Part shown: one piece after another, positions 32,085 to 56,000 of the stretch
Layout: every line of letters begins with the position of its first letter
Numbering within the stretch: the stretch's first letter is position 1
Assembly: GCA_963738405.1 (NCBI GenBank)
Contig: CAVTWJ010000023.1
Coordinates: 192,001 to 256,000 of the forward strand
Length of the DNA: 64,000 nt
Reading direction: 5' to 3'
Source: a candidate division FCPU426 bacterium
Lineage (GTDB): Bacteria; Oederibacteriota; Muellerivitia; Muellerivitales; Muellerivitaceae
Notes under the pieces: generated by a model
Told to the model about the DNA's origin: nothing
What the model saw: only the letters and a program-made list of their open reading frames with translations
Databases searched by the model: none
Translations under genes and position numbers: made by a program

Positions 32085-32096
32085 AATTCTCCTCGA

Positions 32097-32466: not shown

Positions 32467-32484
32467 AAGCCTCCACCCCGAGGA

Positions 32485-35668: not shown

Positions 35669-35679
35669 AACAACGCCTT

Positions 35680-35856
35680 TTATTTTTGTATTTGTATGAG
35701 GTAATCGATTTTGGCCAGCATCCCGCGGATTACAGGCGTATCTGGTTTTTGAACGATTTGACGGATTTTTCGTAAACCTAGAGCTTCTGCAATCCGGACA
35801 TGTTGGGGTTGCCGGCCATTGAGGCTTTTAACCAGTTTAATTTTTAATTCGGTCAT
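35680..35856 (-). CDS. rpmD: 50S ribosomal protein L30 (not in ORF track)
   Basis: Manual translation [33 protein letters not shown]...DTPVIRGML; canonical position. Confidence 0.93.
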
Positions 35857-36365
35857 GATTTCACCGATCCGATAAGACTTTCAACGGTTTTGCCACGAAG
35901 GGCTGCAACCGTTTCGGGCGAACGAACCTCGCTCAAACCCTTTAAAGCCGCTTGAACAACATTAAAAACATTATCTGACCGAATTGATTTGGTTAAAACA
36001 TCGTGGATTCCAGCCAATTCGCAAACAGCCCTCACGCCCCCGCCGGCAATGATGCCAGTTCCTGGAGCAGCGGGCTTTAGAAGTACTCGAGAAGCCTTAA
36101 ACACCCCAACAACCTCGTGATATATGGTTCCTCCCTTAAGAGGGACCTGAATCAAATTTTTCTTAGAATCGTCCACAGCTTTACGAATGGCGTCTGGAAC
36201 TTCACTTGCTTTTCCTGTTCCGATTCCAACAAAACCATGGCCATCACCAACGACCACTAGAACAGAAAAACTAAATCGACGCCCGCCCTTTACGACTTTG
36301 GCGACGCGGTTGATATGGACCACTTTTTCTTTCAAATCAAGTTTGGATGAGTCTATTCGAGCCAT
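35853..36365 (-). CDS. rpsE: 30S ribosomal protein S5
   Basis: [24 protein letters not shown]. Confidence 0.98.
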
Positions 36366-36377
36366 GGTATTCCTTCT

Positions 36378-36743
36378 TTAAAATTTCAAGCCGTTGGCAC
36401 GGGCCGCTTCAGCTAGAGCTTTAATTCGCCCGTGGAAAATGTAACCACCCCTATCAAAAACGACCAGAGCAATGGATTTGGCCTTGGCCAATTTTGCGAT
36501 TTGCTCTCCAACTATTTTTGCGGCTTGTATATTGCCGCCATTTTTCAATTGACCCCGTAACTGCTGGTCAAAACTTGCAGCCGCCACTAGGGTCACCCCC
36601 TTGGAATCATCAATGATTTGGGCTGTAATATTTTTTGCGCCTCGATGAACAACCAAACGAGGCCTTTCGGATGTTCCAGAAAGCTTTTTCCGTATCCGTT
36701 CGTGACGGTGTTTACGTTTATGATGTTGCAATTGCGACTGCAT
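36378..36743 (-). CDS. rplR: 50S ribosomal protein L18
   Basis: [18 protein letters not shown]. Confidence 0.97.
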
Positions 36744-36758
36744 TCAGTTGCTCCTCTA

Positions 36759-37328
36759 TTATTTAGCGCCGGCTTTGCCGGTTGCGCCGGTTTTACCGAC
36801 CTTTTTGCGTACCCTCTCACCTAGATAACGAATTCCTGTTCCCTTATAAACCTCAGGGGGTTTTACCCTGCGAATTTTCGATGCGGTTTCGCCCACCAAA
36901 TACTTGTCAATTCCCTTCACTGTCAGAAGAGTTTGTTTTTCTATATCGACAACGATTCCCTTAGGCAATTCCATCACGACCGGGTGGCTAAACCCGAGGG
37001 TCATAGTTAATTTCCCTTTTTCCAATGACGCACGATAACCCACACCCTGGATTTCTAGTTTCTTTTCAAAACCTGCCGAAACTCCCACGACCATGTTTTT
37101 AACCAGCGCATGGATTAATCCGTGACGAGCTCCGGCTTCTTTCGTTTCACCTTGCAGTCCCTCAACCAAGGATACCTTTAATTGCTTGTCCTCGGTCTCC
37201 ACCTTTAATCCGGGAAGAATTTCCTGGGACAGGGAACCCTTGGGGCCATCCACTGTCACCCGATTTCCTTCAACCTTCACCTTTACCCCCGGGGGCAGAT
37301 CCATCGGTTTTTGGGCAATACGAGCCAT
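36759..37328 (-). CDS. rplF: 50S ribosomal protein L6
   Basis: GPKG, GVGYRA, PPEVYKGTGIRY. Confidence 0.97.
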   Translation of the reverse strand: MARIAQKPMDLPPGVKVKVEGNRVTVDGPKGSLSQEILPGLKVETEDKQLKVSLVEGLQGETKEAGARHGLIHALVKNMVVGVSAGFEKKLEIQGVGYRASLEKGKLTMTLGFSHPVVMELPKGIVVDIEKQTLLTVKGIDKYLVGETASKIRRVKPPEVYKGTGIRYLGERVRKKVGKTGATGKAGAK

Positions 37329-37352
37329 GACTTCTCCTAATTGATTAGCTTA

Positions 37353-37754
37353 TTAATGTACGAGGCAAAGGACTTCCCCGCCAACACCTTGTTGGCGAGC
37401 CTGTCGGTCAGTTAAAAGCCCCTTGGAAGTAGAAACAATCGCTATCCCCAAACCACCTATCACCTTTGGGACTGAAGATTTACCAGCGTAGTGGCGGCGT
37501 CCTGAACGGCTAACCCTGTCAATCCTCGAAATAACTCGTTCCCTTTTATCCCCGTATTTCATTGAAATACGAATGACGGAAGACTTTCCTTTTTCATCTA
37601 CCACTTTATAGTTCTTGATAAATCCCTCTTCCGAAAGAATTCGAGCGATTTCCAATTTTAATTTAGAAAGAGGTACATCAACCTTTTCTTTATACATATG
37701 GTTCGCGTTGCGAATGCGCGTCAACATATCCGCAATAGGGTCCGACATTGCCAT
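37353..37754 (-). CDS. rpsH: 30S ribosomal protein S8
   Basis: [23 protein letters not shown]. Confidence 0.98.
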
Positions 37755-37768
37755 GATAATTTCTCCTC

Positions 37769-37954
37769 TTACCAGCTTGCTTTAACCACGCCGGGAATTT
37801 TCCCTTCACCGGCAAGGTTGCGAAAACAAATACGACACATTCCAAACTTTCGAAGATAGGCCCTGGGGCGACCACAAAGGTTACAACGGTTATAGGCCCT
37901 CACCTTGAATTTGGGTTTCAACTTTTGTTTGTTTATCAAACACTTTTTTGCCAT
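37769..37954 (-). CDS. rpsN: 30S ribosomal protein S14 (Zn type)
   Basis: RCNLCGRPR...CRICFR...PGVVKASW. Confidence 0.97.
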
Positions 37955-37962
37955 TGAATCTC

Positions 37963-38523
37963 CTAGTTTCTGAACGGCATTCCCATAAGTTTCAACAATT
38001 CTTTAGCCCTCTCGTCATCCTTCGCCGAGGTTGCAAAAGTGATATCCATCCCATGAATAGACTGAACGCTATCAAAATTAATTTCGGGAAAGATAATTTG
38101 TTCTTTCAAACCCAAGGTGTAATTTCCCCGTCCATCAAAGGATCGAGTGGGCACACCGCGAAAATCCCGGATGCGAGGAAGGGCTATCATAAAGAGCCGT
38201 TCCATGAACTGATACATTCGATCTCCGCGAAGAGTCACCTTCGCTCCGAGGGGTTGATTGGCCCTGAGTTTAAAATTCGAAATGGCTTTCTTTGACCGCG
38301 TGATAGAAGGTTTTTGGCCGCTAATCAACGTCAGCTCATCCACTGCCATATCTAGCAATTTAATGTTATTTTCCGAAGCCGCCTTCCCAACACAAACGTT
38401 AATCACGATCTTCTCTACCTTCGGAACCTGCATGATGTTCCCAATGCCAAACTTATTCATCAAAGCCGGAACGACTTCCTTGAAATACTTCTCTTTTAGG
38501 ATTGTACTTGTCATCGTGGCCAT
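37963..38523 (-). CDS. rplE: 50S ribosomal protein L5
   Basis: [20 protein letters not shown]. Confidence 0.98.
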
Positions 38524-38525
38524 CT

Positions 38526-38846
38526 TTACTTTTCCTTATCCAATATTTCACCGCATTTTTTACAAGCACGCACCTTTTGTCTACTTGCTAAGGCTTTATG
38601 AGCAACCCGTGTGGCTTTAGCGCATTTACCACAGACAACTTGAAGATTCGAAACATGAATCGGCGCTTCTTTTTCAAGAATCCCTCCCTGCGGAAGCTGT
38701 TGGTTGGGTCTTGTATGACGCTTCACTAAATTAATTTTTTCAACCAAAGCGGTTTCTGTTTTCGGGAAAAGCCGAATCACTCTCCCCTTTTTTCCACGGT
38801 CTTTTCCCGTAAGAACCATCACTGTGTCTTCCCGATGAACATGCAT
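38526..38846 (-). CDS. rplX: 50S ribosomal protein L24
   Basis: [16 protein letters not shown]. Confidence 0.97.
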
Positions 38847-38849
38847 GTC

Positions 38850-39218
38850 TTAAAGAACCTCCGGTGCCAGGGAAATAATTTTCATGAAATTCTTTTCGCG
38901 TAATTCGCGGGTCACAGGGCCAAAAATTCGAGTACCGCGAGGTGCCATCTGGTCATTAATGATGACAGCGGCATTCTCATCAAATCGGATATTGGAACCA
39001 TCGGGACGGGAAAGAATCCTCTTTTGCCTTACGACGACCGCCTTCACCACTTCGCTTTTTTTTACACCCGCACCCGGAATGGCCTCCTTGACAGTCGCCA
39101 CGATAATATCCCCTATCGCAGCATAGCGTCGCCTAGTGCCCCCTAGAACGTGAATGCACATAATTTTAGTTGCGCCACTGTTATCGGCCACATTCAACAT
39201 GGTTTGAGGCATGATCAT
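38850..39218 (-). CDS. rplN: 50S ribosomal protein L14
   Basis: [22 protein letters not shown]. Confidence 0.98.
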
Positions 39219-39502
39219 ACTTTGGCCTCCTCAATCTCGACAGCCTTTTTAACTATCTTGAGAAGCCTCCAGTGTTTGTCAGCGCTGATGGGCCTTGTTT
39301 CCACTATTAAAACCACATCCCCTTTTTTGGTTTCGTTTTTAGGATCATGGATTTTAAATTTGCTCCGCTTGCGGATGAGTTTACGGTAGAGGGGATGTTT
39401 CACCACTCTTTCAATTGAAACCACAGCCGTCTTATCCATTTTTCGGCTTAATACGACCGCCGTTTTAACCCTATTTTCTTTTCGCTTCACATCCGTCTCC
39501 AT
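39215..39502 (-). CDS. rpsQ: 30S ribosomal protein S17
   Basis: KMDKT, HPLY, ETRPIS. Confidence 0.96.
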
Positions 39503-39519
39503 GATTGTCCCTTCCTTTG

Positions 39520-39723
39520 TTAAGCCCTCGGGCCCTTCTCATTTTCCCGAAGAATCGTCTTTAACCGGGCCACCTGGCGTCGGGCTTCCCGAATCTTCAT
39601 TGGGTTCTCCAATTGTTTCGTTGACAGTTGAATTTTGAGATTAAAAAGCTCTTCTTCTTTACTTATGATCTGTTGTCTAAGCTGTTCGACGCTTAAATCC
39701 CGTATTTCTTTGGATTTCATCAT
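39520..39723 (-). CDS. rpmC: 50S ribosomal protein L29
   Basis: [15 protein letters not shown]; canonical position. Confidence 0.95.
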
Positions 39724-40139
39724 GCGCCTCCCTGAGAGCGGGAAATATACTTAGTTTTCACCGGAAGTTTATGAGAAGCCAAAACAAAGGCTTCCTTGGC
39801 GATAGGTTCAGGACATCCACTGACTTCAAAAAGAATACGTCCAGGTTTCACTACGGCAGCCCAATGATCAGGGGCTCCTTTTCCACCACCCATACGAACC
39901 TCAGCGGGTTTACGCGTAATCGGCTTGTCAGGAAAAATACGAACCCAAAGCTTACCCACCCTTTTCATATGACGGTTAATAGCAACCCGTGCCGCCTCAA
40001 TTTGCCGATCGGTTACATAACTCGCTTCAAGCGATTTCAAACCATATTCCCCAAAGGCAAAAGCTGCCCCATTTTTAGTTTTTCCCCGCATACGGCCCTT
40101 CATGGTCTTGCGGTATTTGACACGCTTTGGCATTAACAT
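39720..40139 (-). CDS. rplP: 50S ribosomal protein L16
   Basis: [18 protein letters not shown]. Confidence 0.98.
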
Positions 40140-40154
40140 TTCGAATTCCTCGTT

Positions 40155-40892
40155 TTAAACCCTAGTTTGGGGCTTGGGTGATTTATTTTCAGTTTGACGG
40201 CGTTCACGATGGGGAGGCCTGGGTTTTGGCGCCGGTGTTTCTTCAACCATTTTGTCCTTAGCACCAAATATTTCCTTTTTAAAAACCCAACATTTGATTC
40301 CGATAATTCCATAGGTTGTTGTTGCCACGGCAACACCAAAGTCAATATCTGCCCGCAATGTATGAAGAGGAACCCTGCCCTCTCGATACCATTCGGTTCG
40401 AGCTATTTCGGCTCCTGCCAATCTTCCAGAACACATAATTTTGATGCCCTTAGCCCCTCCATCGAGTGCGCTTTGAATACATTTCTTCATAGCCCGGCGA
40501 AAGGCCACCCGTTTCTCCAACTGTCCCGCAACGTTTTCAGCGATCAATGTAGCATTAGTTTCAGGATGCTTTTCCTCGTTAATATTGATACGAACTTCTT
40601 TTTTCGTAAACTTTTGAAGTTCTTCTTTTAACTTATCAACTTCCGATCCTTTTTTGCCAATAACAATTCCAGGGCGGGAAGCAAAGATATCAACTTCGAC
40701 CGTTTCACCTTTCCGTTTCAAAACAACCTTTGCAATTCCGGCGTGTTTCAATCGCAATTTCACAAATTTACGTATTTCAATGTCTTCCAATAAAGTTTGT
40801 GTGTAGGTTGCCTTTCTAGCATTGAACCATACTGAATCCCAATCGCGGATGATTCCAACCCTCAATCCGATAGGGTTAATTTTTTGTCCCAA
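40155..40892 (-). CDS. rpsC: 30S ribosomal protein S3
   Basis: TTG start GQKINPIGLR, RPGIVIG, GRVPLHTLRA. Confidence 0.97.
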   Translation of the reverse strand: MGQKINPIGLRVGIIRDWDSVWFNARKATYTQTLLEDIEIRKFVKLRLKHAGIAKVVLKRKGETVEVDIFASRPGIVIGKKGSEVDKLKEELQKFTKKEVRININEEKHPETNATLIAENVAGQLEKRVAFRRAMKKCIQSALDGGAKGIKIMCSGRLAGAEIARTEWYREGRVPLHTLRADIDFGVAVATTTYGIIGIKCWVFKKEIFGAKDKMVEETPAPKPRPPHRERRQTENKSPKPQTRV

Positions 40893-40920
40893 AAGATCCT
40901 CCAAAAGCGTTTATTAAGAT

Positions 40921-41268
40921 TTATTTTCCTTCATCCGTAACCACTACCTTGATGTGGCTGGTTCGATGATGTAAAGCGCTGGCTCTTCCCATGGCCCGGG
41001 GAATAAACCGTTTTGTGTTTTTCATCATGGGCCCTCCATCTACTTGGATGGAATGAACACGAAGTTTTTCCAAATCCACCCTTGTATTTTGACCCGCGTT
41101 CGCTACCGCCGCTTTTAATATTTTAGAAAGTTCTCCGGCGGCCCTTTTTTTGGTGAACGCCAAGATATTCAAAGCTTCAACAACAGGTTTGCGACGGATC
41201 AACCCCACCACTTGGCGGGCTTTACGCGGGGTTACCCTTGTGTATCGAGAAACGGCTTGTGCTTGCAT
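40921..41268 (-). CDS. rplV: 50S ribosomal protein L22
   Basis: TPRKAR, AVANA, PRAMGRA, TSHI. Confidence 0.97.
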   Translation of the reverse strand: MQAQAVSRYTRVTPRKARQVVGLIRRKPVVEALNILAFTKKRAAGELSKILKAAVANAGQNTRVDLEKLRVHSIQVDGGPMMKNTKRFIPRAMGRASALHHRTSHIKVVVTDEGK

Positions 41269-41282
41269 GTTTTCTCCTTGAC

Positions 41283-41570
41283 TTACTTCAAAGCCACGGC
41301 TTTTTCACTTTTAACCTGTCCATGATTCTTAAAGGTGCGCGTAGGAGAAAATTCTCCTAATTTGTGCCCCACCATATTTTCAGTGATAAACACGGGTATA
41401 AATTTCTTTCCATTGTGGATGGCAAAGGTATGGCCAACCATTTCAGGATGGACAGAACAACGCCTTACATAGGTTTTAATAACCTTTTTTTCATTACCCC
41501 GGTTCATTTTCTGAACAAGCTTCATCAGCTTTGCATCCACATAGGGCCCTTTTTTTAACGATCGGCTCAT
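41283..41570 (-). CDS. rpsS: 30S ribosomal protein S19
   Basis: [20 protein letters not shown]. Confidence 0.98.
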
Positions 41571-41605
41571 AGTTCCTTTTCCCTCGCCCCTTCAGTTTCC
41601 TGCTT

Positions 41606-42430
41606 CTATTTACGCCGCTTCACAATGAATTTATCGGTTAATTTATTCTGCCGAGTTTTATAGCCCTTGGTGGGTTTTCCCCAAGGAGTCGTCGGATGAC
41701 GGCCCCCCGACGATTTACCCTCGCCACCTCCCATTGGATGTCCGTCTCCAGGACGAGTCACCACACCTCGAGATTGAGGTCTTTCGCCCATCCAACGCAT
41801 GCGACCAGCTTTACCGATGGTGATGTTGTTATGATCCAAATTGCCTACCTGACCTACAGAGGCCATACACTCCACCAAAATCAAGCGCATTTCGCCCGAC
41901 GGAAGCTTAATAGTTGCATATTCTCCCTCCCGAGCCATCAATTGAGCCACCGCTCCGGCAGAGCGAACCAATTGAGCGCCTTTTCCTGGACGGATTTCAA
42001 CGTTATGAATCATCGATCCCAAGGGAATATCTTTTAATTTCATTGCGTGACCAGGTTTCACATCTGCACCCGGCCCGGAAATAACTTGATCACCCACATG
42101 CAAACCATCCGGGGCGAGAATGTATCTCTTATCTCCGTCAAGATATTGAAGCAAAGCAATTCGAGAAGAACGATTTGGATCGTATTCGAGAGCCACTACT
42201 TTTGCCGCCATACCAGGTTTATCCCGCTTCATATCAATAATTCGAAATTGACGCTTGTGACCGGCCCCGCGATGGCGACTGGTGATTCGGCCGTACATAT
42301 TCCGTCCGCCGGTACCCTTCAAAGGCTCAACCAAGGATTTCTCGGGCGCCTTCTTTGTCAGGTTTTCACCAGAAAGAGCCGTCATTCCACGTCGGCCAGG
42401 GGAAGTTGGTTTATAGGCTTTGATGGCCAT
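41606..42430 (-). CDS. rplB: 50S ribosomal protein L2
   Basis: EYDPNRS, RSAG, GKAGR, GGGEG, PWG. Confidence 0.98.
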
Positions 42431-42432
42431 AA

Positions 42433-42729
42433 TTACGCTCCCTCGAAGAATTCAATTTTTTGTCCAGGCTTCAACGTAACAATAGCTTTTTTCCAACGAT
42501 AACCTTTTGACAAAAAACGTCCAAAACGGCGAACCTTCGCGGGAACATTGGCGGTATTAACCTTTAACACCTCTACCTTTTCTTTCTTAAAAATTTGCTC
42601 CACCGCGTTTTTTATTTCCTGTTTTGTTGCATCCGAATGCACCTCAAAAGAATATTTGCCCTTTTCTTTCATTAAAGTGCTTCGTTCGGTTACGAGAGGA
42701 CGAACAATGACCGTTTGAATTTTTTTCAT
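42433..42729 (-). CDS. rplW: 50S ribosomal protein L23
   Basis: [20 protein letters not shown]. Confidence 0.96.
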
Positions 42730-43376
42730 TGAGCCTTCTCCTTTACTTGTGCAGAACTAGGAGCAGACAACAATTTCAAGGCTTCTTGCGTTAAAACCAA
42801 AATTTCATGATTTACAATTTCGTAGGTGTTTAGGTTTTCTCGAAACAAAACTTTTGTCTTAGGAAGATTTCTAAAGCTTTTTATCGTCGGAATGTGATTA
42901 TTATCCAGAACCAAAAGGCACTTTTTCCCTTCAATTCCCAATCCCTTTAAAAAGCCTAAAGCCAATTTTGTTTTCGGTGTTTCAAATTGAATTTTATCAA
43001 CCACCAAAATCTTACCCTGCTGAGCTTTATCCGACAGAGACTCAGCTAAGGCTTGACGCCTCATTTTTTTGGGAAGTTCCTTTGAATAATCACGCGGTTT
43101 AGGTCCATGCGCAATTCCACCACCCACAAATTGAACAGCTCTAATAGATCCTTGACGCGCATTGCCCGTCCCCTTTTGTTTAAAGGGTTTTTTTCCTCCG
43201 CCAGACACTTCGCCCTTGCGTTTGGTTTTGACGGTACCCAAACGTTGATTCGAAAGATGGGTTGTAATACTGCGCCACAAATGATGTTCGCGAGGCTTTA
43301 ATCCAAACACAGTTTCAGGAAGATCCACTTGGCCTGTGGTTTGGCCATTTGCATTGTAAACATTTGCTTTAGGCAT
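42726..43376 (-). CDS. rplD: 50S ribosomal protein L4
   Basis: KPFKQKGTGNARQG, GGGIAHGPKPR. Confidence 0.97.
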   Translation of the reverse strand: MPKANVYNANGQTTGQVDLPETVFGLKPREHHLWRSITTHLSNQRLGTVKTKRKGEVSGGGKKPFKQKGTGNARQGSIRAVQFVGGGIAHGPKPRDYSKELPKKMRRQALAESLSDKAQQGKILVVDKIQFETPKTKLALGFLKGLGIEGKKCLLVLDNNHIPTIKSFRNLPKTKVLFRENLNTYEIVNHEILVLTQEALKLLSAPSSAQVKEKAQ

Positions 43377-44031
43377 TTGATTTCACCTTATGTTGCTTCT
43401 TGACGCTTGGACGAACCGTAATAAGACCACCATCAGCCCCTGGAACGGCGCCTTTAACGAAAAGGAGGTTATTATCCGAATCCACTTTTATGACCCTAAG
43501 ATTCAATATCGTATTTCTATCAGTTCCCATATGTCCCGGCATGCGGGTTCCGGGATAGACGCGCGAGGGATCGGACGAAGCGCCAATACCCCCCGGCGCA
43601 CGATGAAACATGCTGCCATGAGAATTTCTTCCCCCTCTGAACCCATGCCGCCTAACCGCTCCCTGAAATCCCTTGCCCTTCGTGACACCCGTAACATCTA
43701 CCCATTGGACGTTTTTAAATATTTCTAGCGTTAACGCCTGTCCAACTTGAAAAGGAGAAACATCTTCAACTCGTATTTCTTGCAAAACAGCCTTCGGAGT
43801 TGCCCCCGATTTTTTAAAATGCGCCATTAAAGATTTAGTAGTGTGTTTTTCCTTTTTCTCGCCGTAACCCAACTGGAGGGCGTTATACCCCTCCTTTTCC
43901 TGACTTTTCTTTTGAATAATGACGCAAGGGCCCACCTCTAACACCGTTACATGTGTGGCTTTGCCATTTTCTTCAAAAAAGGTGGTCTGGCCCAACTTCT
44001 TTCCAATTAGGGGTTGAACGCTCTCACTCAT
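43369..44031 (-). CDS. rplC: 50S ribosomal protein L3
   Basis: GKGFQG, SHGS...HRAPG, KGAVPG; start MSESVQ at 44031. Confidence 0.97.
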   Translation of the reverse strand: MSESVQPLIGKKLGQTTFFEENGKATHVTVLEVGPCVIIQKKSQEKEGYNALQLGYGEKKEKHTTKSLMAHFKKSGATPKAVLQEIRVEDVSPFQVGQALTLEIFKNVQWVDVTGVTKGKGFQGAVRRHGFRGGRNSHGSMFHRAPGGIGASSDPSRVYPGTRMPGHMGTDRNTILNLRVIKVDSDNNLLFVKGAVPGADGGLITVRPSVKKQHKVKSNA

Positions 44032-44041
44032 GTTTTTTTCC

Positions 44042-44359
44042 TTACAGCTTGATCTCGACATCTACCCCTGCGGGCAGGTCGAGTTTCATTAGAGAATCTA
44101 TCGTTCTCTGATTTGGGTTTACGATATCAACTAATCTCTTGTGGGTTCTAACTTCAAACTGTTCCCTTGATTTTTTATCAACGTGCGGGCTACGTAAAAC
44201 CGTATACCGGTTAATTTCAGTCGGCAGGGGAACGGGCCCCAATACAATGGCGCCGGTTCGTCTGACCGTTTCTATGATTTCCACCGTCGACCTATCCAAC
44301 AACCGATGGTCGTAGGCTTTCAACTTAATGCGAATTTTTTGACTCGTGGCCGTGGCCAT
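44042..44359 (-). CDS. rpsJ: 30S ribosomal protein S10
   Basis: [28 protein letters not shown]. Confidence 0.98.
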
Positions 44360-44386
44360 TCTTCCCTCGCCTTTTCTTGGGTATCG

Positions 44387-45577
44387 TTATTCTATGATTT
44401 CGGTTACAACTCCGGCGCCCACGGTGTGTCCGCCTTCCCGGATGGCAAACCGTAGTTCTTTCTCCATCGCCACCGGTACGATCAACTCAATCTCCATCGT
44501 GATATTGTCGCCTGGCATGCACATTTCCGTCCCGCCCGGCAACTGCACACTCCCCGTCACGTCCGTCGTACGGAAGAAGAATTGCGGCTTGTACCCGTTG
44601 AAAAATGGCGTGTGCCGGCCACCCTCTTCCTTCGTCAAGACGTACACTTCGCCCTTGAACTTCTTGTGCGGATTAATCGACTTCGGCTTCGCCAGCACCT
44701 GGCCCCGCTCGATGTCTTTCTTGTCCACGCCACGGAGCAGGGCTCCGATGTTGTCTCCCGCCTGCGCGTCATCCAGCAGTTTCCGGAACATTTCCACGCC
44801 CGTCACCACTGACTCACGCGTCGGCTTAATTCCCACGATTTCAACCGCGTCCCCGACCTTCACCTTTCCGCGTTCCACGCGGCCTGTCGCCACGGTTCCA
44901 CGGCCAGTGATCAAGAACACGTCCTCGACCGCCATCAAAAAGTCCTTGTCCACATCACGCTTCGGCTCCGGTACATAGCTGTCCACCGCATCCATCAACT
45001 GAAAGATGGCCTTTTCACCCATATCGCTCGTATCGCCATCCAAGGCTTTCGTCGCCGATCCCTTGATCACAGGCGTCTTGTCCCCGGGGAATCCGTACTT
45101 GGTCAGGAGATCCCTGACTTCCACTTCCACCAGTTCCAACAGTTCCGCGTCGTCCACCATGTCGCACTTGTTCAAAAACACCACGATATAGGGCACACCC
45201 ACTTGGCGGGCCAACAGAATATGCTCTCTCGTCTGGGGCATGGGGCCGTCGGCCGCCGATACCACCAATATCGCTCCGTCCATCTGCGCCGCGCCGGTGA
45301 CCATGTTCTTGATATAGTCCGCGTGACCCGGGCAGTCCACGTGAGCGTAATGCCTCTTCTCGGTCTGGTATTCCACGTGCGACGTATTGATCGTCACACC
45401 GCGTTCCCTTTCCTCGGGGGCGTTGTCGATATCTGCGTATCCCTTAGCCGTTGCCCAGCCCTTCTTCGACAGCACCGTCGTGATGGCCGCCGTCAAGGTC
45501 GTCTTTCCGTGGTCCACGTGTCCGATCGTTCCGATATTCACATGCGGCTTCGACCTTACGAATTTTTCCTTCGACAT
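44387..45577 (-). CDS. tuf: elongation factor Tu
   Basis: [39 protein letters not shown] before ATG 45577. Confidence 0.99.
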
Positions 45578-45619
45578 AGACACTCCTCCTCATCCACCTT
45601 TTACCAGGTGGGTTTAAAA

Positions 45620-47698
45620 TCAACCCTTCACTTTTGCAATAATTTCTTGCTGAACCGACTTAGGCGTTTCCGCATAATGAGCGAACTGCATCGTATAAGT
45701 GGCCCTACCCTGGGTCATCGAACGCAGGTTCGTGGAGTATCCAAACATATCGGAAAGGGGAACTTTTGAACGAATGGTTTGCATGGTTCCACGAAGTTCC
45801 ATTCCCTCTATTTTTCCGCGCTTTGATTGGAGATCCCCCATCACCGGCCCCATGAAATCATCGGGCGTCACGACTTCCACATCCATAACCGGTTCAAGGA
45901 TAATAGGATCTGCTTTTTTCATCGCTTCCTTAAAGGCCATGGAAGCCGCAATTTTAAAAGCCATTTCGTTCGAATCGACTTCATGATAAGAACCATCGGT
46001 CAAGGTAACCTTAAAATCCACCACCGGATAACCGGCAAGAACACCCGTATCCTTTGCTTCATTAATACCTTTTTCAACTGCGGGGATATATTCACGAGGA
46101 ACAGTACCGCCCACAACGGCGTTAACGAATTCAATTCCTTTACCAGGGGCTTGAGGTTCCATAGTGATGTAAACATGTCCATACTGACCGCGACCGCCGG
46201 TTTGACGAATATATTTCCCTTCGGCTTCCACACTCTTGCGGATGGTTTCGCGGTAAGCGACCTGGGGTTTACCTACATTTGCCTGAACATTAAACTCTCT
46301 CATCATACGATCAACGATGATTTCTAAATGAAGTTCACCCATACCAGCAATGATCGTCTGGCTTGTTTCTTCGTCTGTTTTTACCCTGAAAGAAGGATCT
46401 TCCTCCGCCAACTTGCTCAAAGCCATTCCCATTTTTTCCTGGTCGGCCTTTGTTTTAGGTTCTATGGCAATAAAAATGACAGGATCCGGAAACACCATCC
46501 GCTCCAAGATGATGGGATGATCTTCGGAACAAAGAGTGTCCCCCGTTGTAATAGCCTTGATGCCTACCGTCGCAGCGATATCACCAGAATGAACTTCTTT
46601 AATTTCTTCCCGCTTATTGGCATGCATTTGAAGGAGTCGTCCAACACGTTCCCGACTCCCTTTGGTTGAATTGTAAACATAGGAACCGGTCGATAAAGTG
46701 CCTGAATAAACCCGGAAATAAACCAATTTTCCCACATGGGGATCGGTCATGATTTTGAATGCAAGGGCAGAGAAAGGCGCTTCATCGCTCGTTTCACGGG
46801 TTTCTTCTTCATTGGTATCTGCGTTATGCCCCTTCACCGGCGGAATATCGATCGGAGAGGGTAGGTAATTAACCACCGCATCCAACAAAGGCTGAACGCC
46901 TTTATTTTTAAAAGCGGATCCACAAAAGACAGGATTAAATTTGTTAGAAATGGTCCCGATACGAATACACTTGTTGATTTCTTCCGAGGTTATTTCATGC
47001 CCGTCCAAGTACTTTTGCATGACCACATCATCATATTCAGCAACGGCTTCAACCAATTCATGCCGATATCTTTTGGCCTGTTCCAAATACTCGGCGGGTA
47101 TTTCTTCAATCTCAAACTTAGCGCCTAATGAATCGTCCAGCCAGCGATAACGCTTCATTTCAACCAAATGAATAATTCCGTCAAATTTATCTTCTTCTCC
47201 AACGGGTATTGCCACAGGATGGGCATTAGCGTTCAGTCTTTTACGCATGGCTTCAATGGCCCCAAAATAATCTCCGCCAATACGATCCATTTTGTTGACA
47301 AAGGCAATGCGCGGAACGCCATAACGAGTCGCTTGGCGCCAAACGGTCTCCGACTGAGGCTCAACCCCTTCTACCGCTCCAAACACGCCGATAGCGCCGT
47401 CCAAAACCCGCAAAGACCGTTCAACCTCAATGGTGAAATCAACGTGGCCTGGAGTATCAATAATATTGATCCGGTTATTTTGCCAAAAACAGGTCGTAGC
47501 AGCGGACGTAATGGTGATCCCGCGCTCTTGTTCTTGAGGCATCCAATCCATGGTAGCGGTTCCGTCATGGACTTCGCCAATTTTATGGGTGCGTCCCGTG
47601 TAATAAAGAATACGCTCGGTCAAGGTTGTCTTGCCGGCGTCAATGTGGGCCATGATCCCGATGTTTCGGGTCTTCGCCAGGGGAATAGGTCTTGCCAC
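45620..47698 (-). CDS. fusA: elongation factor G
   Basis: [29 protein letters not shown]. Confidence 0.99.
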
Positions 47699-47713
47699 GG
47701 AATTACCTCGAAA

Positions 47714-48184
47714 TTACCAGCGGTAGTGGGCAAAAGCCTGGTTAGCTTCCGCCATCTTATGCGTGTCTTCTTTTTTCTTGATTGCCGTACCTTGATTTTT
47801 AAAAGCGTCAGCAAATTCCGCAGCCAATTTTTCGGCAACGGTCTTTTCTTTTCTTGCCCGAGCAGCCGTTAATAGCCAACGGATCGCCAAAGAGGTTCGT
47901 CTTTCCGGCCTAATCTCAACAGGCACCTGATAAGTAGCTCCGCCCACCCTTCGGGATTTGACTTCTAAAACAGGCTTCACGTTATCAATAGCTGTTTTGA
48001 AAACATTCAATGCGCCTTCGCCATGTTTCTGCCCCAAAACGTCCATGGCGCCATAAAAGCTACGAGCCGCCACCATTTTTTGGCCATGGTACATCATTGA
48101 ATTTATAAATTTTGTTACCAGTTTGTTGTTATAGCGGGAATCAGCTTCAACTTCCCGTCTAGCAGCAACTTTTCTGCGGGGCAT
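47714..48184 (-). CDS. rpsG: 30S ribosomal protein S7
   Basis: RRVGGATYQVP, HKMAEANQAFAHYRW. Confidence 0.98.
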   Translation of the reverse strand: MPRRKVAARREVEADSRYNNKLVTKFINSMMYHGQKMVAARSFYGAMDVLGQKHGEGALNVFKTAIDNVKPVLEVKSRRVGGATYQVPVEIRPERRTSLAIRWLLTAARARKEKTVAEKLAAEFADAFKNQGTAIKKKEDTHKMAEANQAFAHYRW

Positions 48185-48194
48185 TTATCTCTCC

Positions 48195-48596
48195 TTAAAC
48201 TTTCGCGGTCTTAGCGGCCGCGTCTTTTTTGGGACGTTTCATTCCATATTTGGAACGACCTTGTTTTCGATCCGTCACGCCAGCCGCATCCAAGGTTCCG
48301 CGCACAATATGGTAACGAACACCCGGCAGATCCTTAACGCGGCCACCCCTTATGAGAACAATGGAATGTTCCTGCAGATTGTGGCCGACACCAGGGATAT
48401 AACAGGTCACTTCCATGCCATTGGTTAAGCGAACGCGAGCAATTTTACGAAGAGCCGAATTAGGCTTTTTGGGGGTCATCGTGGCGACCTTAACGCAAAC
48501 TCCCCTTTTCTGGGGACAAGCCTTGAGGGCCGGCGATTTGGTCTTATGTTTGCTTTTAGCCCGTCCAAACCGGACCAACTGATTGAGGGTCGGCAA
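48195..48596 (-). CDS. rpsL: 30S ribosomal protein S12
   Basis: TTG start PTLNQL with [26 protein letters not shown]. Confidence 0.98.
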
Positions 48597-48616
48597 GTCT
48601 TCCTCCAAGTCTCTCT

Positions 48617-48658
48617 AAAAAATAAAAAAGGCAAAGACAGTGAGCTCCGCCTTTGCCT
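48617..48658 (-). terminator. intrinsic terminator inside the rpsL 5' leader
   Basis: 12-bp stem AGGCAAAGGCGG/CTGTCTTTGCCT (2 GU pairs), 6-nt loop, followed by TTTTTATTTTTT. Confidence 0.8.
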
Positions 48659-48809
48659 CGGGAACGACACGAAACTGTCCGGAATAAATTATCCGGTGAA
48701 TCGTTAAGCAAAGCCCTCCTCTTGCTCACCATTTGAAGGGCCTAAAACCCCTTCAAAAGGAGGAAATTCTTCACTTTTCAGCCCAAAAGCTGTTCAAACG
48801 CGGACGGCT

Positions 48810-48838
48810 AAGATACCTAAAGGCCTATGCCTGGTCAA
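48810..48838 (-). promoter_or_regulatory. sigma70-type promoter for rpsL, overlapping the rpoC end
   Basis: TTGACC-17 nt-TATCTT on the minus strand. Confidence 0.6.
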
Positions 48839-51800
48839 GGCTTTTTTTATCCGAAAGCTCAGAATCACCTTTGAATTCAGGCTCGTCCAAAATCAATTCT
48901 GCTACCGGTGGAGCCGATGCAATCCCTGCAGGCAAAACTTCTTCCGGCTCGTCCACATCAATGGTCAATGTTCTATAGCTTGGACTGCCCGTTCCAGCCG
49001 GAATCAAATGCCCCATGATCACATTTTCTTTTAATCCACGCAGGTTATCTATTTTCCCTGAAACAGCCGCCTCAGTAAGCACCTTGGTGGTTTCTTGGAA
49101 ACTTGCAGCAGAAATGAAACTTTCTGTCCCCAAGGAAGCTTTTGTTATACCTAGGAGAATCGGACGAGCAGTAGCCAGTTTTTGATCTTTATCCAAAACT
49201 CTTTCATTTTCCTTCTTGAACTTCCCCTTATCTACCTGTTGTTTGGGAAGAAATTCTGTATCTCCAGGCTCTTGAATAACGACCTTCCTCATCATTTGAC
49301 GAACGATCACTTCAATATGCTTGTCATTAATACGAACACCTTGCAGACGGTAAACTTCCTGAACCTTAGCCAAAAGATACTCTTGAACAGCAGCTTCTCC
49401 CTGAACTTCTAGAATATCATGGGGATCGACCGCTCCATCTGTCAAAGCATCCCCCGCGCGAACGAAGTCACCCTCGTGTGTGTTCATATGCTTACCGTAT
49501 GGAATGGAATATTCTTCCTCTAAAGATTTCTTTCCTTCCACGTTGGTCAAAACAATTTTTTGATACCCCTTGGAGGCAGTACCATAAGTCACCGTGCCGC
49601 TAATTTTAGCAATCACGGCGTTATTTTTGGGACGTCTCGCCTCAAACAGTTCAGCGACCCGCGGCAGACCACCGGTAATATCACGAGTTTTCGAAATTTC
49701 CCTGGGAATCTTCGCCAACACATCTCCCGCCATGATTTTATCGCCATCCATAACGTTAATCAGAGACCCGGTGGGAAGTCGATAGCTTTTAATTGCTTCC
49801 CCAGTGGCAGGATTAAGTATCACACAACGGGGCGAAAGATTTTCATCTTTGTATTCCATAACAGCGCGTTCCATTAATCCGGTGGACTCGTCAATTTCCT
49901 CGCGAACCGTAACACCGCGAACCACATCTTGAAGTTTAATGGTTCCGCTAACTTCAGTGAAAATGGGAACTTTGTAAAGATCCCAATGGGCCAAGAGTTG
50001 CCCTTCCTTCACAGTGTCGTCTTCTTTCACCTTTAAAGTGGATCCGAAAGGCACCACGAAATTCTCCATGGCCCGGCCCTTTTCGTCATACACGGATATT
50101 TCACCGTTCCGGTTAAGGACGATGTATTCATTGTTACGATTTTCAACCAATTTCAAATTGTGGAATCGGACACGTCCATTTTTGGTTGATTCGGTTTTAG
50201 ATTGTTCCAAAGCGCGGCTTGCTGCGCCACCCACGTGGAAAGTACGAAGGGTCAACTGAGTGCCAGGCTCACCGATGGATTGGGCGGCAATAATGCCGAC
50301 GGCTTCACCAATTTGAACCAACCGGCCATTCGCCATGTTGACGCCATAACACTTGGCACAAACTCCCAGTTCCAATTCGCAGGTGAGGACGGATCGAACT
50401 CGGATTTGCTCGATTCCCGCCTCTTCCAATTTTTCGCCGATTTCCTCGGTGATTACTTGCCCCGACTTTACGATCACTTCGCTCGTTAGAAGATTCGCAA
50501 CGTTATCAACCGCGATGCGTCCCGCGATGCGATCTTTCAAAGGTTCTATGATTTCTATTCCTTCTTTGATCGCCCCGACCCGAATTCCATTAACGGTTCC
50601 ACAATCCTCTGCGTTGATAATGACTTCTTGAGCCACATCCACCAAACGACGTGTCAGATAACCGGCGTCGGCGGTTTTCAAAGCCGTATCCGCCAAACCC
50701 TTTCTGGCGCCATGGGTGGAAATGAAGTATTCCAAAACGGTTAAGCCCTCGCGGAAATTCGCAGTAATAGGCGATTCGATAATTTCACCGATGGATCCAG
50801 TGATTTTTTGAAGCGGTTTGGCCATCAATCCGCGCATCCCAGCCAACTGACGAATCTGCATCTTGGAACCGCGGGCGCCAGAATCAGCCATCATGTAAAT
50901 AGGATTGAATCCAAAAGCATCCCGCTTAAGGTTTTCAAACATAACTTCCGCAATTTCATCAGTGGTATGGGTCCAGATATCAATAACCTTGTTGTATCTT
51001 TCACCAGCGGTGATGATTCCTTTTTTATACTGGTTTTCGATTTCAGCGACTTCCTTGTAGGAACGCTTCAAGATTTCCGGCTTATCCTTCGGGATTTTCA
51101 TGTCCTCAATGGAAACCGTAATGCCAGCCCGTGTAGCAAAACGGAAGCCCGTGTCCTTGATGTCATCCAAGAGCTTTACGGTTATATCTTGCCCTAATTT
51201 TTCATAGCAAAGGGCAACCAGGTCACCCAATTCTTTCTTGGTCATAACCCGGTTCACGTAAGGCAGACCCTCGGGAATGATTTGATTGAAAATAACTCGG
51301 CCCACAGTGGTATCAATCAATTTGCCCTTGCGACGAACCTTGATCTTTGCGTGGATTCCGACCTTTTTTTCCTCAAAAGCAATAATCACTTCTTGAGCGT
51401 TGGAAAAAACTTTGCCTTCGCCTACATCGCCCGGCTTTTCTTTTGTCAGATAATAGGAACCAAGAACAATATCCTGAGTAGGGGTAACAATAGGACGTCC
51501 ATTTGACGTGGAATTAATGTTATTGGTAGACAACATCAAGTACCGGGCTTCCATCTGGGCTTCGCTTGAAAGAGGAACGTGGACAGCCATTTGATCCCCG
51601 TCAAAATCCGCGTTAAAAGCGGTACAAACCAACGGATGGATTTGAATAGCCCTTCCCTCAATAAGAACCGGCTGGAAAGCTTGAATGCCTTGACGATGCA
51701 GGGTCGGAGCGCGGTTTAACAGAACATGGTGATCTTTAATCACCTCCGCCAAAATATCCCAAACTTCAGGTTTTACCCTTTCAACCATCTTACGAGCGCT

Positions 51801-53069
51801 CTTTATCGTGTGAACATAACCTCGATCCTCAAGCTTTTTAATGATGAAAGGCTTGAACAGTTCCAAAGCCATTTTCTTCGGAAGCCCGCACTGATGCATT
51901 TTTAACTCCGGCCCTACAACGATCACTGAACGGCCGGAATAATCGACGCGCTTTCCCAATAGATTTTGGCGGAATCGTCCCTGTTTACCTTTTAACATAT
52001 CGGACAAGGATTTTAAGGGTCGGTTTCCCGGGCCTCGGACAGCGTGACCACGGCGGCCGTTATCTAATAAAGCATCCACCGCTTCTTGTAACATGCGTTT
52101 TTCGTTGCGAACAATAACCTCAGGAGCGTGCAATTCCAGAAGTTTTTTCAATCGGTTATTGCGGTTAATAACACGCCTGTAAAGGTCATTTAAGTCAGAG
52201 GTAGCAAATCTTCCCCCATCCAACGGAACGAGTGGCCGAAGCTCAGGTGGAATGACTGGCAAAACCTCAAGGAACATCCACTCCGGCTTATTGTCGCTCT
52301 TTCGGAAACTTTCAATGACCTTCAAGCGCTTAATAAGAGTTTTTCGCTTTTGTTCACTTGTCGTTTGCTTCATTTGGACCCGTAGCTTCTTGTCAAGATC
52401 CTCTAAATCAACAGCTCGGATCAAATCACGAACCGCCTCAGCACCCATTTTGGCTTTTAGCGAAGCCCCGTATTCAACCCGTAGCTTCTGATACTCATCC
52501 TCACTTAACAATTGCCCAATTTCCGCTGGAGCTTTACCGGGGTCAATGACCACATAGGATTCATAGTAAATAACTCGTTCTAGATTGCGAGTGGACATTT
52601 CCAATAAATACCCCATTCGCGAAGGCACACCTTTTAGATACCATATATGAGACACCAAACAAGCGAGTTCGATGTGACCCATGCGTTCCCTGCGTACTTT
52701 AGCCTGGGTAACTTCCACACCACAACGATCACAAATGACATCCTTATATTTAATCCGTTTGTATTTTCCGCAAGCGCATTCCCAATCCTTTGTAGGACCG
52801 AAAATCTTCTCACAAAACAAACCATTCTTTTCCGGCTTAAAGGTACGATAATTAATCGTTTCTGGTTTTTTCACTTCTCCATGCGACCAGGAACGAATCG
52901 TCTCAGGCGAAGCAAGGCCAATCTTGATGGCATCAAACCTTTGGGTTTCCCTCATCAAACTCTCTAATGCGGTTTTTTTCTCTGCAACCGGTAAAATGGC
53001 AGCTTCTATAGCTTCAACGGCCGCCACTTCGTTTTTTTCCTCAGGGGCTGTGGATTTTACTTGGCTCAT
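48825..53069 (-). CDS. rpoC: RNA polymerase beta' subunit
   Basis: [12 protein letters not shown], Zn finger, [13 protein letters not shown] followed by an SI3-like insertion; start MSQVKS at 53069. Confidence 0.99.
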
Positions 53070-53080
53070 TTGTCCCCTCC

Positions 53081-56000
53081 TTAATTGGAACTTTTTAACA
53101 ATTTGACATCTAAGCAAAGACCTTGCAGTTCCTTAACCAAAACATTAAACGATTCAGGCACACCCGGCTCAGGGGAGTTTTTGCCCTTCACGATCGATTC
53201 ATAAACTTTGGTTCGACCCTGAACATCATCCGATTTAACCGTCAATAATTCCTGCAAAGTGTAAGCGGCCCCATAGGCCTCCAATGCCCATACTTCCATC
53301 TCTCCAAATCGCTGACCACCAAACTGTGCTTTACCGCCCAAGGGCTGTTGAGTGATAAGGGAATAGGGCCCGATAGACCGAGCGTGAATCTTGTCATCAA
53401 CCAAGTGAGCCAATTTAAGGATGTAAATGTAACCCACGGTCACTTCTTGGTCGAACGCCTCTCCCGACATGCCATCAAAAAGAGTGATTTTTCCAGTTTC
53501 AGGAAGAGACTGCTCCTTCAAAGCTTTACGGATTTCATCTTCCCGCGCCCCGTCAAAAACGGGTGAAGAAACATGGTAACCACCCTCTGCAGCGGCCCAA
53601 CCTAAATGCGTTTCCAAAATCTGGCCCACATTCATACGGGAAGGAACGCCCAAGGGATTCAGAATGATATCAACCGGCCTTCCGTTGGGTAGATAGGGCA
53701 TATCCTCTACAGGCACAATTTTCGAAACTACTCCCTTGTTGCCATGGCGGCCCGCCATTTTGTCGCCCACTGAAAGCTTGCGTTTCTTGGCGATGTAAAC
53801 TTTGACCAATTTAATAACACCCGGGGGAAGTTCATCTCCCTTTTTGACCTTATCGATTTCGTTGTTTTTCTCACGTTCAATATCACGCACTCGACTATCA
53901 AGAACTTCCTTCAATCGCTTGGTCTCTTCATCAAATTTTTCTTCCAACCCGGCTTTTTCAGTTTTGTTCAAACCTTGGATTTTTTCATCCAACTGTTTTT
54001 TAAGAGACTCGATCCGGTTTTCGGTTTCCTTTTCGAGCTGGCGAACTTGGTGAGCCGAATCTTTTTCAATGGCTTTTAGTAGGGACGCATCCCTGCCCTT
54101 GATCTTTTCGTCTTTTTCTTTGCGTTTGAACACCTTAACATCAATGACCTTGCCCTCAACCCCCGGCGGCACCCTCAATGATGCATCTCGAACATCTCCA
54201 GCTTTTTCTCCAAAAATGGCTCTCAATAATTTTTCTTCAGGGGTTAGTTCGGTTTCACCTTTGGGAGTCACCTTTCCTACCAAAATATCTCCCGGAACCA
54301 CCTCGGCTCCAATCCTGACGATACCTTCCTCATCAAGATCTTTTAGGGCCTCATCGCCCACGTTAGGGATATCTCGAGTTATTTCTTCTTTACCCAATTT
54401 AGTGTCCCGCGCTTCCAGCTCGAACTCCTCAACATGAACCGATGTAAAGTAATCTTCCCGGACGAGTTTTTCAGAAACGATGATCGCATCTTCAAAGTTA
54501 AAGCCTCTCCATGGCATAAAAGCTACCAAGAGATTGCGACCAAGCGCCAATTCACCTTGATCAGTAGAGGGACCGTCTGCTACGACATCTCCCTTTTTAA
54601 CCTTTTCGCCTTTTTTGACGATAGGCCGCTGATTGATGCAGGTATCCTGATTCGACCGTTTGTACTTGGTTAGTTTGTAAATATCGACTGATCCTGTCGA
54701 ATCTTCATCATCTGCAAAAATGATAATTTCATCGGATGAAACCCCAGCTACAACGCCATCGCGTTTGGCAATGACCAACACACCCGAGTCATAGGCAGCC
54801 TTATATTCCATGCCCGTGCCAACAAAGGGTGCCTCGGTTCGGATCAAGGGCACGGCCTGGCGCTGCATGTTGGAACCCATGAGCGCACGGTTGGCGTCAT
54901 CATGTTCCAGGAAGGGAATCAGCGAAGTGGCTACGGAAAAAAGTTGGCGGGGTGAAACATCCATATAGTGAATGTCATTGGCGGTCACTAAGGGGAAATC
55001 GTCTTTTGATCGAGCCGCGATAATATCGCCCGTGAACTTATTATTGTCATCCAACGGCGTGTTGGCTTGAGCAATGATGTACTTATCGGCATCATCCGCA
55101 GGTAAAAATTCGATCTTTTTGGATACCTTTCCACTTTCGACTTTACGAAGAGGAGTTGTAACGAATCCGTATTCGTTAATTTGTGCGTAGGTGGAAAGGG
55201 ATGCGATCAAACCAATATTCGGCCCTTCGGGCGTTTCAATCGGACAAACCCGGCCATAATGCGTGTGGTGAACGTCACGCACCTCAAAACCTGCTCTTTC
55301 CCGGTTTAGGCCACCGGGGCCAAGCGCAGATAAGCGCCGTTTATGAGTTAATTCAGCCAAAGGATTAGTTTGGTCCATAAACTGCGACAGCTGGGAAGTT
55401 CCAAAAAATTCCTTTACTGCGGCAGTTATGGGTTTAGTGGAAATTAACTGGCTGGGCATGGGATTCATGTCCATGTCAACGATCGACATGCGCTCCCGAA
55501 CCGCGCGCTCCATACGGGTAAAGCCGAGTCGCAGTTTATTTTCTAACAATTCCCCAGCCGTACGCACCCTGCGATTTCCCAAGTGATCAATATCATCCTT
55601 TTCGCCTTTGCCATTGCACAGTTCAAAAAGATAACGAATGATCGAAACCAGATCCTCTTTAGAGATAGTGCGCTGATCCATAGGCGTTTTAAGGCCCAAC
55701 TTTTTGTTCATCTTGTATCGGCCAACCCGAGCCAAATCGTAACGGCGTTTGTTAAAGAAAAGGTTGTCCATTAAATTCTTGGCGTTTTCAAGCGTCGGGG
55801 GATCGCCCGGACGCATTTTTTTGTACACTTCCACCAGAGCCGTTTCCGTAGAATGGGTGTTGTCTTTGCGGATAGTGTTGAGAATAGAAACATCGCCAGG
55901 GTTCGAGGGCACCGCTTTCACTGACTTCACGTTAAGTTTTTTCAAAACAGCTATCACTTCAGGCGCGAAGTCCGCCCCAGCTTCAACAACCACTTCTCCC

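Follow-up and report, generated by a model that had tools for sequence, protein, structure and literature searches.

A conserved structured leader RNA between rpoC and rpsL in one order of an uncultured bacterial phylum, probably a terminator/antiterminator switch

The spacer between rpoC and rpsL, 228 nucleotides (nt) long on the minus strand of a 64,000-nt stretch from a candidate division FCPU426 bacterium (contig CAVTWJ010000023.1, positions 192,001 to 256,000; the whole stretch is hereafter called the window), encodes a leader RNA whose conservation across a single order of an uncultured bacterial phylum exceeds chance expectation. The spacer is very probably a real, structured leader of about 190 nt, and it ends in a strong intrinsic terminator shortly before the rpsL Shine-Dalgarno (SD) sequence. 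We consider it probable that the leader is a switch between this terminator and an antiterminator and, with somewhat less assurance, that it controls the entry of RNA polymerase into rpsL-rpsG-fusA-tuf by attenuation in the manner of the ligand model set out below. All leader coordinates refer to the minus strand and to positions of the whole window.

A preliminary description, made from the letters of the window, had placed a promoter, paired elements and a terminator in this spacer, and every one of these motifs was found on the minus strand where it had been placed. Motif scans alone did not rise above chance, with 2 sites against 1.9 expected in the promoter scan and 5 against 2.2 expected in the terminator scan, and the case therefore rests on comparison with relatives. 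Within the family, the spacer DNA had a counterpart at 68-85% identity in 19 of the 24 other genomes; 16 genomes from outside the family gave no match. All 20 of the spacers fetched first (L001-L020) lie between rpoC and rpsL and are 228-316 nt long. A covariance model built from 22 leaders (197 positions, 40 pairs) gave exactly one match in each of 26 of the order's 32 genomes; of the 18 that are of high quality, 17 had it. The five family genomes that gave no match are 63-89% complete. The sole high-quality genome of the order that was missed, G025 from a second family, carries a shorter, reduced homologue (23.5 bits) directly upstream of rpsL, which retains TTGACC-17-TATATT, GGAGGACUUUGC, and GGCAAAGG..CCUUUGCC. 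For the phylum, 18 of 60 high-quality genomes were matched, namely the window's genome, 16 others of its family and G057, the last being the only match in the 42 high-quality genomes of other families. We took this match (L111, G057:C33, 802-946, 37.8 bits) as spurious and rejected it: only the low-complexity P1 part of the model matched, on a C/G-rich hairpin (UCCCCCUUUUUCAAAGGGG...), the contig differs from that of rpsL, and no ribosomal protein (r-protein) gene lies beside it. The leader set comprises 24 distinct sequences from 15 genera.

RNAalifold, run on a plain MAFFT alignment, predicted the helices P1 and P1a as well as the terminator; 9 of its 39 pairs were compensated. In the alignment fitted to the covariance model (24 distinct rows), 90.6% of the cells of the whole structure were paired, and 25 of the 40 pairs showed changes on both sides, as compared to 13.2 +/- 1.8 in shuffles, a value that none of 500 shuffles reached; the model-fitted alignment leans to its own structure, so that these pairing and covariation figures are somewhat generous. 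When the 3' partners were slid by 1-3 columns, the pairing fell to 42-66%.

The P1 domain (48715..48763) consists of an outer helix, the hairpin P1a and the internal loop J1. The outer helix CCUCCU/AGGAGG (48763-48758 with 48720-48715) is 98.6% paired and essentially invariant; its changes are one-sided only and give no covariation signal for or against it. Inside it, the two strands of P1a, TTTGAAGGG (48757-48749) and CCCTTCAAA (48740-48732), changed on both sides in 10 of 12 pairs. On the 3' side of P1, J1 presents the conserved unpaired sequence UGGUGAGCAAG (48721..48731), in which GGUGAGC is nearly invariant. GGUGAGC is the most conserved unpaired element of the leader and adjoins the CUUUGC strand of the antiterminator; we regard J1 as the candidate ligand site, where a factor that prevents CUUUGC from closing the antiterminator would likely bind at GGUGAGC. 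The P2 domain (48663..48705) forms the body of the antiterminator stem, with the nested helices AACGA/UCGUU (AACGA at 48705-48701 with TCGTT at 48667-48663) and CCGGA/UCCGG (CCGGA at 48696-48692 with TCCGG at 48683-48679) in the window. In the lower P2 helices, all 3 pairs of one and 4 of the 5 pairs of the other changed on both sides, as did 8 of the 9 pairs of the apical hairpin. A small hairpin upstream of both domains, P0 (CAGC-loop-GCTG, 48779..48792 in the fold of the window leader), is variable and its sequence is not conserved between genera.

The strong terminator that had been described before the rpsL SD is borne out by the terminator scan. The element (48617..48659) has a stem of 13 pairs (48659-48628), with the 5' arm at 48659-48647, the 6-nt loop AGCUCA at 48646-48641 and the 3' arm at 48640-48628, and 10 nt lie between the end of its T-run (48627-48617) and the SD. 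In the window the hairpin has an energy of -15.9 kcal/mol, and the hairpin alone gives -13 to -16 kcal/mol across the genomes. The terminator word occurs once in the window's genome. Pairing of the terminator reaches 99.2% among the leaders; double changes are lacking, and G-U pairs persist in the upper stem.

The antiterminator competes with this hairpin for the same strand. Its 5' strand CUUUGCUU (CTTTGCTT in DNA, 48713-48706) pairs with AGGCAAAG (48658-48651) in a closing helix of 8 base pairs in the window, and CUUUGC:GCAAAG adjoins the covarying lower helix of P2 with only a small bulge between them. Folding of the segment bounded by CUUUGC and GGCAAAG gives a single long stem of -18 to -29 kcal/mol in 19 of 20 genomes. 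Since GCAAAG is also the terminator 5' arm, the antiterminator and terminator folds exclude each other. The core UUUGC/GCAAA is 99.2% paired and unvarying. In the divergent genomes G010 and G013, the terminator arm has changed and the antiterminator strand matches 10 nt of the changed arm, which none of 200 shuffles reached; the corresponding matches in G025 and G019 gave p values of 0.025 and 0.04. Of the antiterminator in the preliminary description, the mutually exclusive CTTTGC(TT)/(AG)GCAAAG pairing that closes nested, covarying helices held up; the closing helix itself is invariant and is supported by its context, not by covariation.

The local hairpin by which GAGCAA (48727-48722) was supposed to pair with TTGCT as an anti-antiterminator fared worse. 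Only its G-C and C-G pairs are constant, and the other three of the five pairs are broken in 7, 10 and 3 of the 24 sequences without compensation, so that the hairpin was rejected. A three-pair extension of P1, AAA:UUU, which would use the UUU of CUUUGC for the same role, is 94.4% paired, but 137-166 of 500 shuffles reached its values; we regard it as plausible only.

The promoter proposed for the leader is present and conserved across the leaders. The promoter scan listed the -35 hexamer TTGACC (48838-48833), followed after a 17-nt spacer by the -10 hexamer TATCTT (48815-48810), a pair with 9 of 12 consensus matches. The rpoC stop codon TAG (48827-48825) falls between the two hexamers. TTGACC is invariant in all 23 distinct leaders, despite its position within the rpoC coding sequence, and is also kept in the divergent members L093, L112 and L113. 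TAnnnT stands at 17-nt spacing in 22 of the 23 leaders; the exception, L020, has TACGCT one base further on, which by eye reads as an 18-nt spacer. An extended -10 element, TGn directly before the hexamer, occurs in 19 of the 23, and the four leaders that lack it, all from the window's genus, carry the better hexamer TATCTT. Directly upstream of the -35 hexamer and within the last rpoC codons lies an A-run resembling an UP element (48842..48848). The nucleotide sequence AAAAAAGCCTTGACC does not vary, even though it codes for the final RpoC residues, while the rpoC bases just upstream do. After the -10 hexamer follows the C-rich segment A, AGCCGTCCGCGTTTGA (48794..48809), which comprises the discriminator and the probable transcript start, and of which TCCGCGTTT is nearly invariant among the leaders.

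The promoters upstream of the 16S genes of G001, G003, G004 and G006 (L115-L118) read TTGACG or TTGACA, 17 nt, and TATAAC or TATAAA. They continue with C-rich CCCCC(G/A)GGCC, which resembles the ACCC(C/G)TCC after the -10 hexamer of the rpsL leaders; the C-rich stretch may be a discriminator-type element shared by the rRNA and rpsL-leader promoters.

Downstream of the terminator, the distance from the end of the stem to the rpsL start is 27-39 nt in the 18 leaders, of 23 distinct, whose stored flank reaches the start codon, and it is mostly filled by the T-run and the SD. This leaves no space for a sigma-70 promoter, as had been argued from the window, and the promoter scan of the window listed no promoter-like site between the terminator and rpsL. 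Upstream, there is no terminator between rpoC and the leader, and therefore polymerase leaving rpoC must also pass through the leader.

In the mechanism that we propose, transcription would start at the conserved promoter, with its -35 hexamer in the last rpoC codons, and polymerase from rpoC would also enter the leader. P1 would be the first domain to form, as a helix of SD-like and anti-SD-like strands with its covarying hairpin and the conserved GGUGAGC internal loop. P2 would then zip up, and its stem would run on into CUUUGC:GCAAAG, consuming the terminator 5' arm and allowing read-through, which we infer to be the default. If the CUUUGC strand next to P1 were held or covered, GCAAAG would be left free to pair with the downstream CUUUGCC, and transcription would stop 10 nt before the SD. 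The most likely agent would be a protein encoded by the operon, uS7 or uS12, which would bind P1 and the GGUGAGC loop and stabilize the short AAA:UUU extension of P1. The terminator and antiterminator states of the full leader are 0.9-9.9 kcal/mol apart in all 24 sequences; with the terminator state as the minimum and the antiterminator state only this far above it, the choice between them should be kinetic. Because the antiterminator can zip from P2 before the terminator 3' arm is made, read-through is likely to be the default, which is what one would expect with the only visible promoter on the upstream side.

Several observations weigh against this mechanism. The computed minimum is the terminator state in 24 of 24 leaders, with the antiterminator state above it, and it is the order of folding, not the energy, on which read-through as the default depends. 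Neither UUUGC:GCAAA nor the terminator ever varies on both sides; the helices that define the switch are invariant, and covariation thus speaks neither for nor against them. L017 has AUUCGC in place of CUUUGC, and its closing helix is weak. Complementarity of such length is common by chance: when upstream segments were compared with the terminator arm and loop in dinucleotide shuffles, segments of at least 5, 6 and 7 base pairs covered as much in 121-216, 33-152 and 12-413 of 500 shuffles. Outside the order, 13 of 17 spacers likewise have a terminator ahead of rpsL, at a distance of 25-98 nt from the start (L101 gave no usable figure), and in these spacers the antiterminator was not significant in the duplex-versus-shuffle test (p 0.075-0.93). 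A comparison for 16S rRNA mimicry, made with the 16S rRNA of same-genus genomes as the window's genome has no assembled 16S rRNA gene, found no significant similarity, but only words of 6-9 nt with E-values of at least 0.8. Finally, the RNA data consist of contigs of relatives, which carry no information on starts or ends. In 13 metatranscriptome runs, at most a fraction of 0.07 of the sampled words was present, and the four runs that we examined yielded contigs of relatives only, with part of the stretch not covered. One such contig (315 nt, depth 16) runs from the rpoC end into P2, and another (151 nt, depth 2) extends from the 3' part of P2 through the terminator and the SD to the rpsL start. 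They are compatible with entry from rpoC and with read-through into rpsL and are evidence of neither, as the contigs show no ends and DNA carry-over is possible.

An alternative is that the terminator is constitutive and has no sensor. It would then end rpoBC transcription with a fixed leak, the hairpins belonging to a stabilizing or processing 5' untranslated region (UTR) of an rpsL mRNA made from the promoter at the rpoC end. We regard this as unlikely, although it is consistent with the lack of any other terminator between rpoC and rpsL, with the relative's RNA contig that runs from the rpoC end into the leader, with the strong terminators that lack a significant antiterminator before rpsL in other families of the phylum, and with the terminator fold as the computed minimum in 24 of 24 leaders. 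However, in a plain terminator there would be no need for the loop to be invariant or for the G-U pairs of the upper stem to be conserved, nor for an unchanging copy of the 3' arm to lie upstream, stacked on a covarying stem. Moreover, the only visible promoter, the conserved TTGACC-17-TAnnnT, precedes the terminator; downstream, where about 20 nt remain ahead of the SD, nothing resembles a promoter, so that expression would require read-through; on this point the RNA contigs of relatives give only weak hints.

The assignment of the ligand is tentative. An r-protein encoded by the operon is possible, and one consideration favors the leader as its target: the gap between rpsL (end 48195) and rpsG (start 48184) is 10 nt, which leaves no room for an operator such as that of Escherichia coli uS7 (PMC10931766), and feedback is therefore more likely to act at the leader. 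The signal might also be something other than an r-protein, which we hold to be improbable: a small molecule such as a nucleotide alarmone, sensed as in a riboswitch; an elongation factor of general function, NusA or NusG for instance; or a free 30S subunit binding the SD-like GAGGAGG once P1 opens. P1 is indeed an internal SD/anti-SD duplex, its 5' strand CCUCCUUU being identical to the terminal 8 nt at the 3' end of 16S rRNA in a genome of the same genus, but this 8-nt identity has an E-value of 3.3. The invariant unpaired bases in two domains and the lack, in the 16S comparison, of any rRNA mimicry pointing to a particular r-protein would also suit such a signal, whereas no riboswitch or other Rfam family was matched, even at E-values up to 10. 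ATGGTGAGC was also found in the rrn leader of the window's genus (in G001, with the 8-mer TGGTGAGC in G003) and not in that of G004 or G006; we took this as chance.

Two further pairings link the upstream part of the leader to the terminator. GGUGAGC of J1 is complementary to the terminator loop GCUCACU, with 95.8% paired and one compensatory change, a value that 81 of 500 shuffles reached. UCCGC in segment A (48804-48800) is complementary to GCGGA in the upper terminator 5' arm, with 96.7% paired and one double change, in one genus; 3 of 500 shuffles reached its covariation score. The two pairings could explain the unchanging terminator loop and the G-U pairs of the upper stem, but complementarity of such lengths is common in shuffled leaders, and both therefore remain ideas only. 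They could be combined into a multi-point antiterminator that reads ribosome supply instead of a single protein, in which a free 30S subunit, or a platform protein that recognizes the SD:anti-SD duplex, would decide between read-through and termination for about 30 translation genes. The sensor helix would be the internal SD:anti-SD duplex with a 5' strand copying the 16S 3' end, and 19 contiguous terminator bases of the 5' arm and loop (GGCAAAG-GCGGA-GCUCACU) would have the invariant upstream partners CUUUGC, UCCGC and GGUGAGC. Such invariant partners would account for the unchanging loop and the G-U pairs; nevertheless, we give this arrangement little chance of being correct.

Ribosome-mediated attenuation through a short leader open reading frame (ORF), in which a ribosome would cover the antiterminator 5' strand and so favor termination, is very improbable, and we rejected the candidate peptide after GGAGGG, as it is missing from the window and six other leaders and its stop is not conserved. 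The idea draws on a start codon 7 nt downstream of the SD-like GGAGGG, which would open a peptide such as M-(M/K)-I-P-P-(W/G); an NTG start is present in about 17 of the 24 distinct leaders (18 by script count, L017 having an insertion there), and several of the peptides are short and share an IPP motif, as (M/K)IPPW or IPPG. The frame was seen in loci L005-L019, L025, L043 and L044 (alignment A3, columns 138-185). However, the start codon is missing in the window, in three of the four members of its genus, in both g12 members and in L020; the frames run from 5 codons to open ends; the bases are already explained by the covarying P2 helices; and the SD-like sequence is paired within P1.

No Rfam family matches the leader. 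The preliminary description had recognized none, and an Rfam 15 cmscan of 47500-49500 with E-values up to 10 gave six matches, all far below their gathering scores and none to a leader or riboswitch family, T-box and r-protein leaders included. Neither of the two rpsL leader families of Rfam is among these six or matches the spacer: RF01773 (rpsL_pseudo, gathering score 70 bits) gave three sub-threshold matches of at most 18.4 bits in the window's genome, all on other contigs, and the sole match to RF01774 (rpsL_ricks, gathering score 60 bits), at 22.7 bits, lies on contig C21, outside the window. A literature search found no description of the present leader.

The kind of element is known, in contrast to the leader itself. 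According to Naville and Gautheret (2010), rpsL is among the genes most often preceded by an attenuator; putative antiterminators are drawn for the rpsL of Listeria, Xanthomonas, Pseudomonas and Rickettsia, with earlier predictions in 24 species, and these "multiform" rpsL-leaders have neither sequence nor structure in common between lineages and no known ligand (PMC2965389). Members of that class, RF01773 and RF01774 among them, resemble the present leader in having a terminator in the 5' UTR of the rpsL that heads rpsL-rpsG-fusA-tuf, and a putative antiterminator, with uS7 proposed as ligand (PMC2965389). Two features of the class (PMC2965389) are present here, namely a terminator in the 5' UTR near the rpsL start and, in 19 of 20 genomes, an alternative fold, CUUUGC:GCAAAG, that excludes it. 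The present leader differs from RF01773 and RF01774 in its two covarying domains, its SD/anti-SD-like helix, its almost invariant terminator and its occurrence in an uncultured candidate phylum. The 20 r-protein leader candidates in the excerpt of Eckert and Weinberg (2020) include none for rpsL (S12), the only 'rpsl' there standing in the L13 row (rplM, rpsl, and rpsB), where we read it as rpsI (PMC7247131). The novelty proposed in the preliminary description thus holds for the leader, which no Rfam family matches, and not for its kind, as rpsL attenuators with putative antiterminators have already been described as multiform rpsL-leaders (PMC2965389). Since rpsL attenuators are known and the leader is unmatched, we place it among the rpsL-leaders as a structurally new variant; that it is a new RNA family of a known regulatory type is well supported.

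Attenuation driven by an r-protein has been demonstrated for the Bacillus subtilis rplJL and infC leaders (PMC4538822, PMC1865079). Like the leader in our working model, those of rplJL, with L10(L12)4, and infC-rpmI-rplT, with L20, are long (about 200 nt for infC), and an r-protein of the operon shifts transcription towards termination; they differ in genes, proteins and folds, and their binding and attenuation have been shown by experiment (PMC4538822, PMC1865079), r-protein binding being a proposal for the present leader. By inference, the present leader would work like these L10 and L20 attenuators. In E. coli, the str operon is controlled by uS7, whose binding in the intercistronic region between rpsL and rpsG blocks coupled translation (PMC10931766). 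The operon is the same, and feedback by an r-protein that it encodes is proposed here as well. The present locus differs in its rpsL-rpsG spacer of 10 nt, in which a structured intercistronic region is lacking, so that we rejected an operator of the E. coli type, and in its conserved RNA upstream of rpsL, which ends in a terminator. In the S10 operon leader of E. coli, uL4 together with NusA causes termination in the leader. That system is likewise an r-protein-dependent terminator at the head of a long r-protein operon, the dependence being a proposal in the present case, but it belongs to another operon and has another structure, and no r-protein leader of Rfam was matched here.

The genes around the leader were assigned with NCBIfam equivalog models as rpoC, rpsL, rpsG, fusA, tuf and rpsJ. 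The rpoC ORF spans 48825..53117 and matches its equivalog model. The rpsL SD GGAGGA (48606-48601) precedes a TTG start codon (48596-48594), from which translation begins (M)PTLNQLVR, and the product scores 229 bits against the rpsL_bact equivalog. The start codon is TTG in all 20 family spacers fetched first; in other families of the phylum it is ATG or TTG. From rpsL, contiguous ORFs on the minus strand extend for about 19.6 kb (29036-48596) through rpsG, fusA, tuf and rpsJ to an ORF ending at 29036, with small gaps and with only weak, short terminator-like matches (5-9 pairs) on that strand; the family search named only the first five genes of this block. The control exerted by the leader would probably extend to the contiguous r-protein genes after tuf.

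Beyond the block lies a promoter-like TTGACC-17-TAAAAT (28999-28971). On the plus strand, opposite the rpsL/rpsG junction (48161-48237), there is a terminator-like hairpin CGCGGTC-TTAGC-GGCCGCG followed by TCTTTTTT (48204-48222), which is overlapped by a weak Rfam match to mmgR/suhB (22.7 bits, E-value 0.075, below the gathering score of 41). In loci L095-L110, from the other families, the terminators before rpsL include the strong AAAGACGGA-UGUU-UCCGUCUUU, and five of the outside-family spacers that we inspected have a near-consensus promoter soon after the upstream ORF, for example TTGACA-17-TATACT.

Control of the str operon outside Gammaproteobacteria is largely unstudied according to a 2024 review (PMC10931766), and many predicted rpsL attenuators are still without a known ligand (PMC2965389). 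The leader described here is an unusually well-defined example of a predicted rpsL attenuator, in that two of its domains covary and its candidate ligand site is sharply conserved. It is suited to a covariance-model family and, though the organisms are uncultured, is amenable to in vitro work. For the bacteria of this order, the placement of the terminator suggests that read-through would be needed for the expression of rpsL, and probably also for that of the approximately 19.6 kb of contiguous translation genes.

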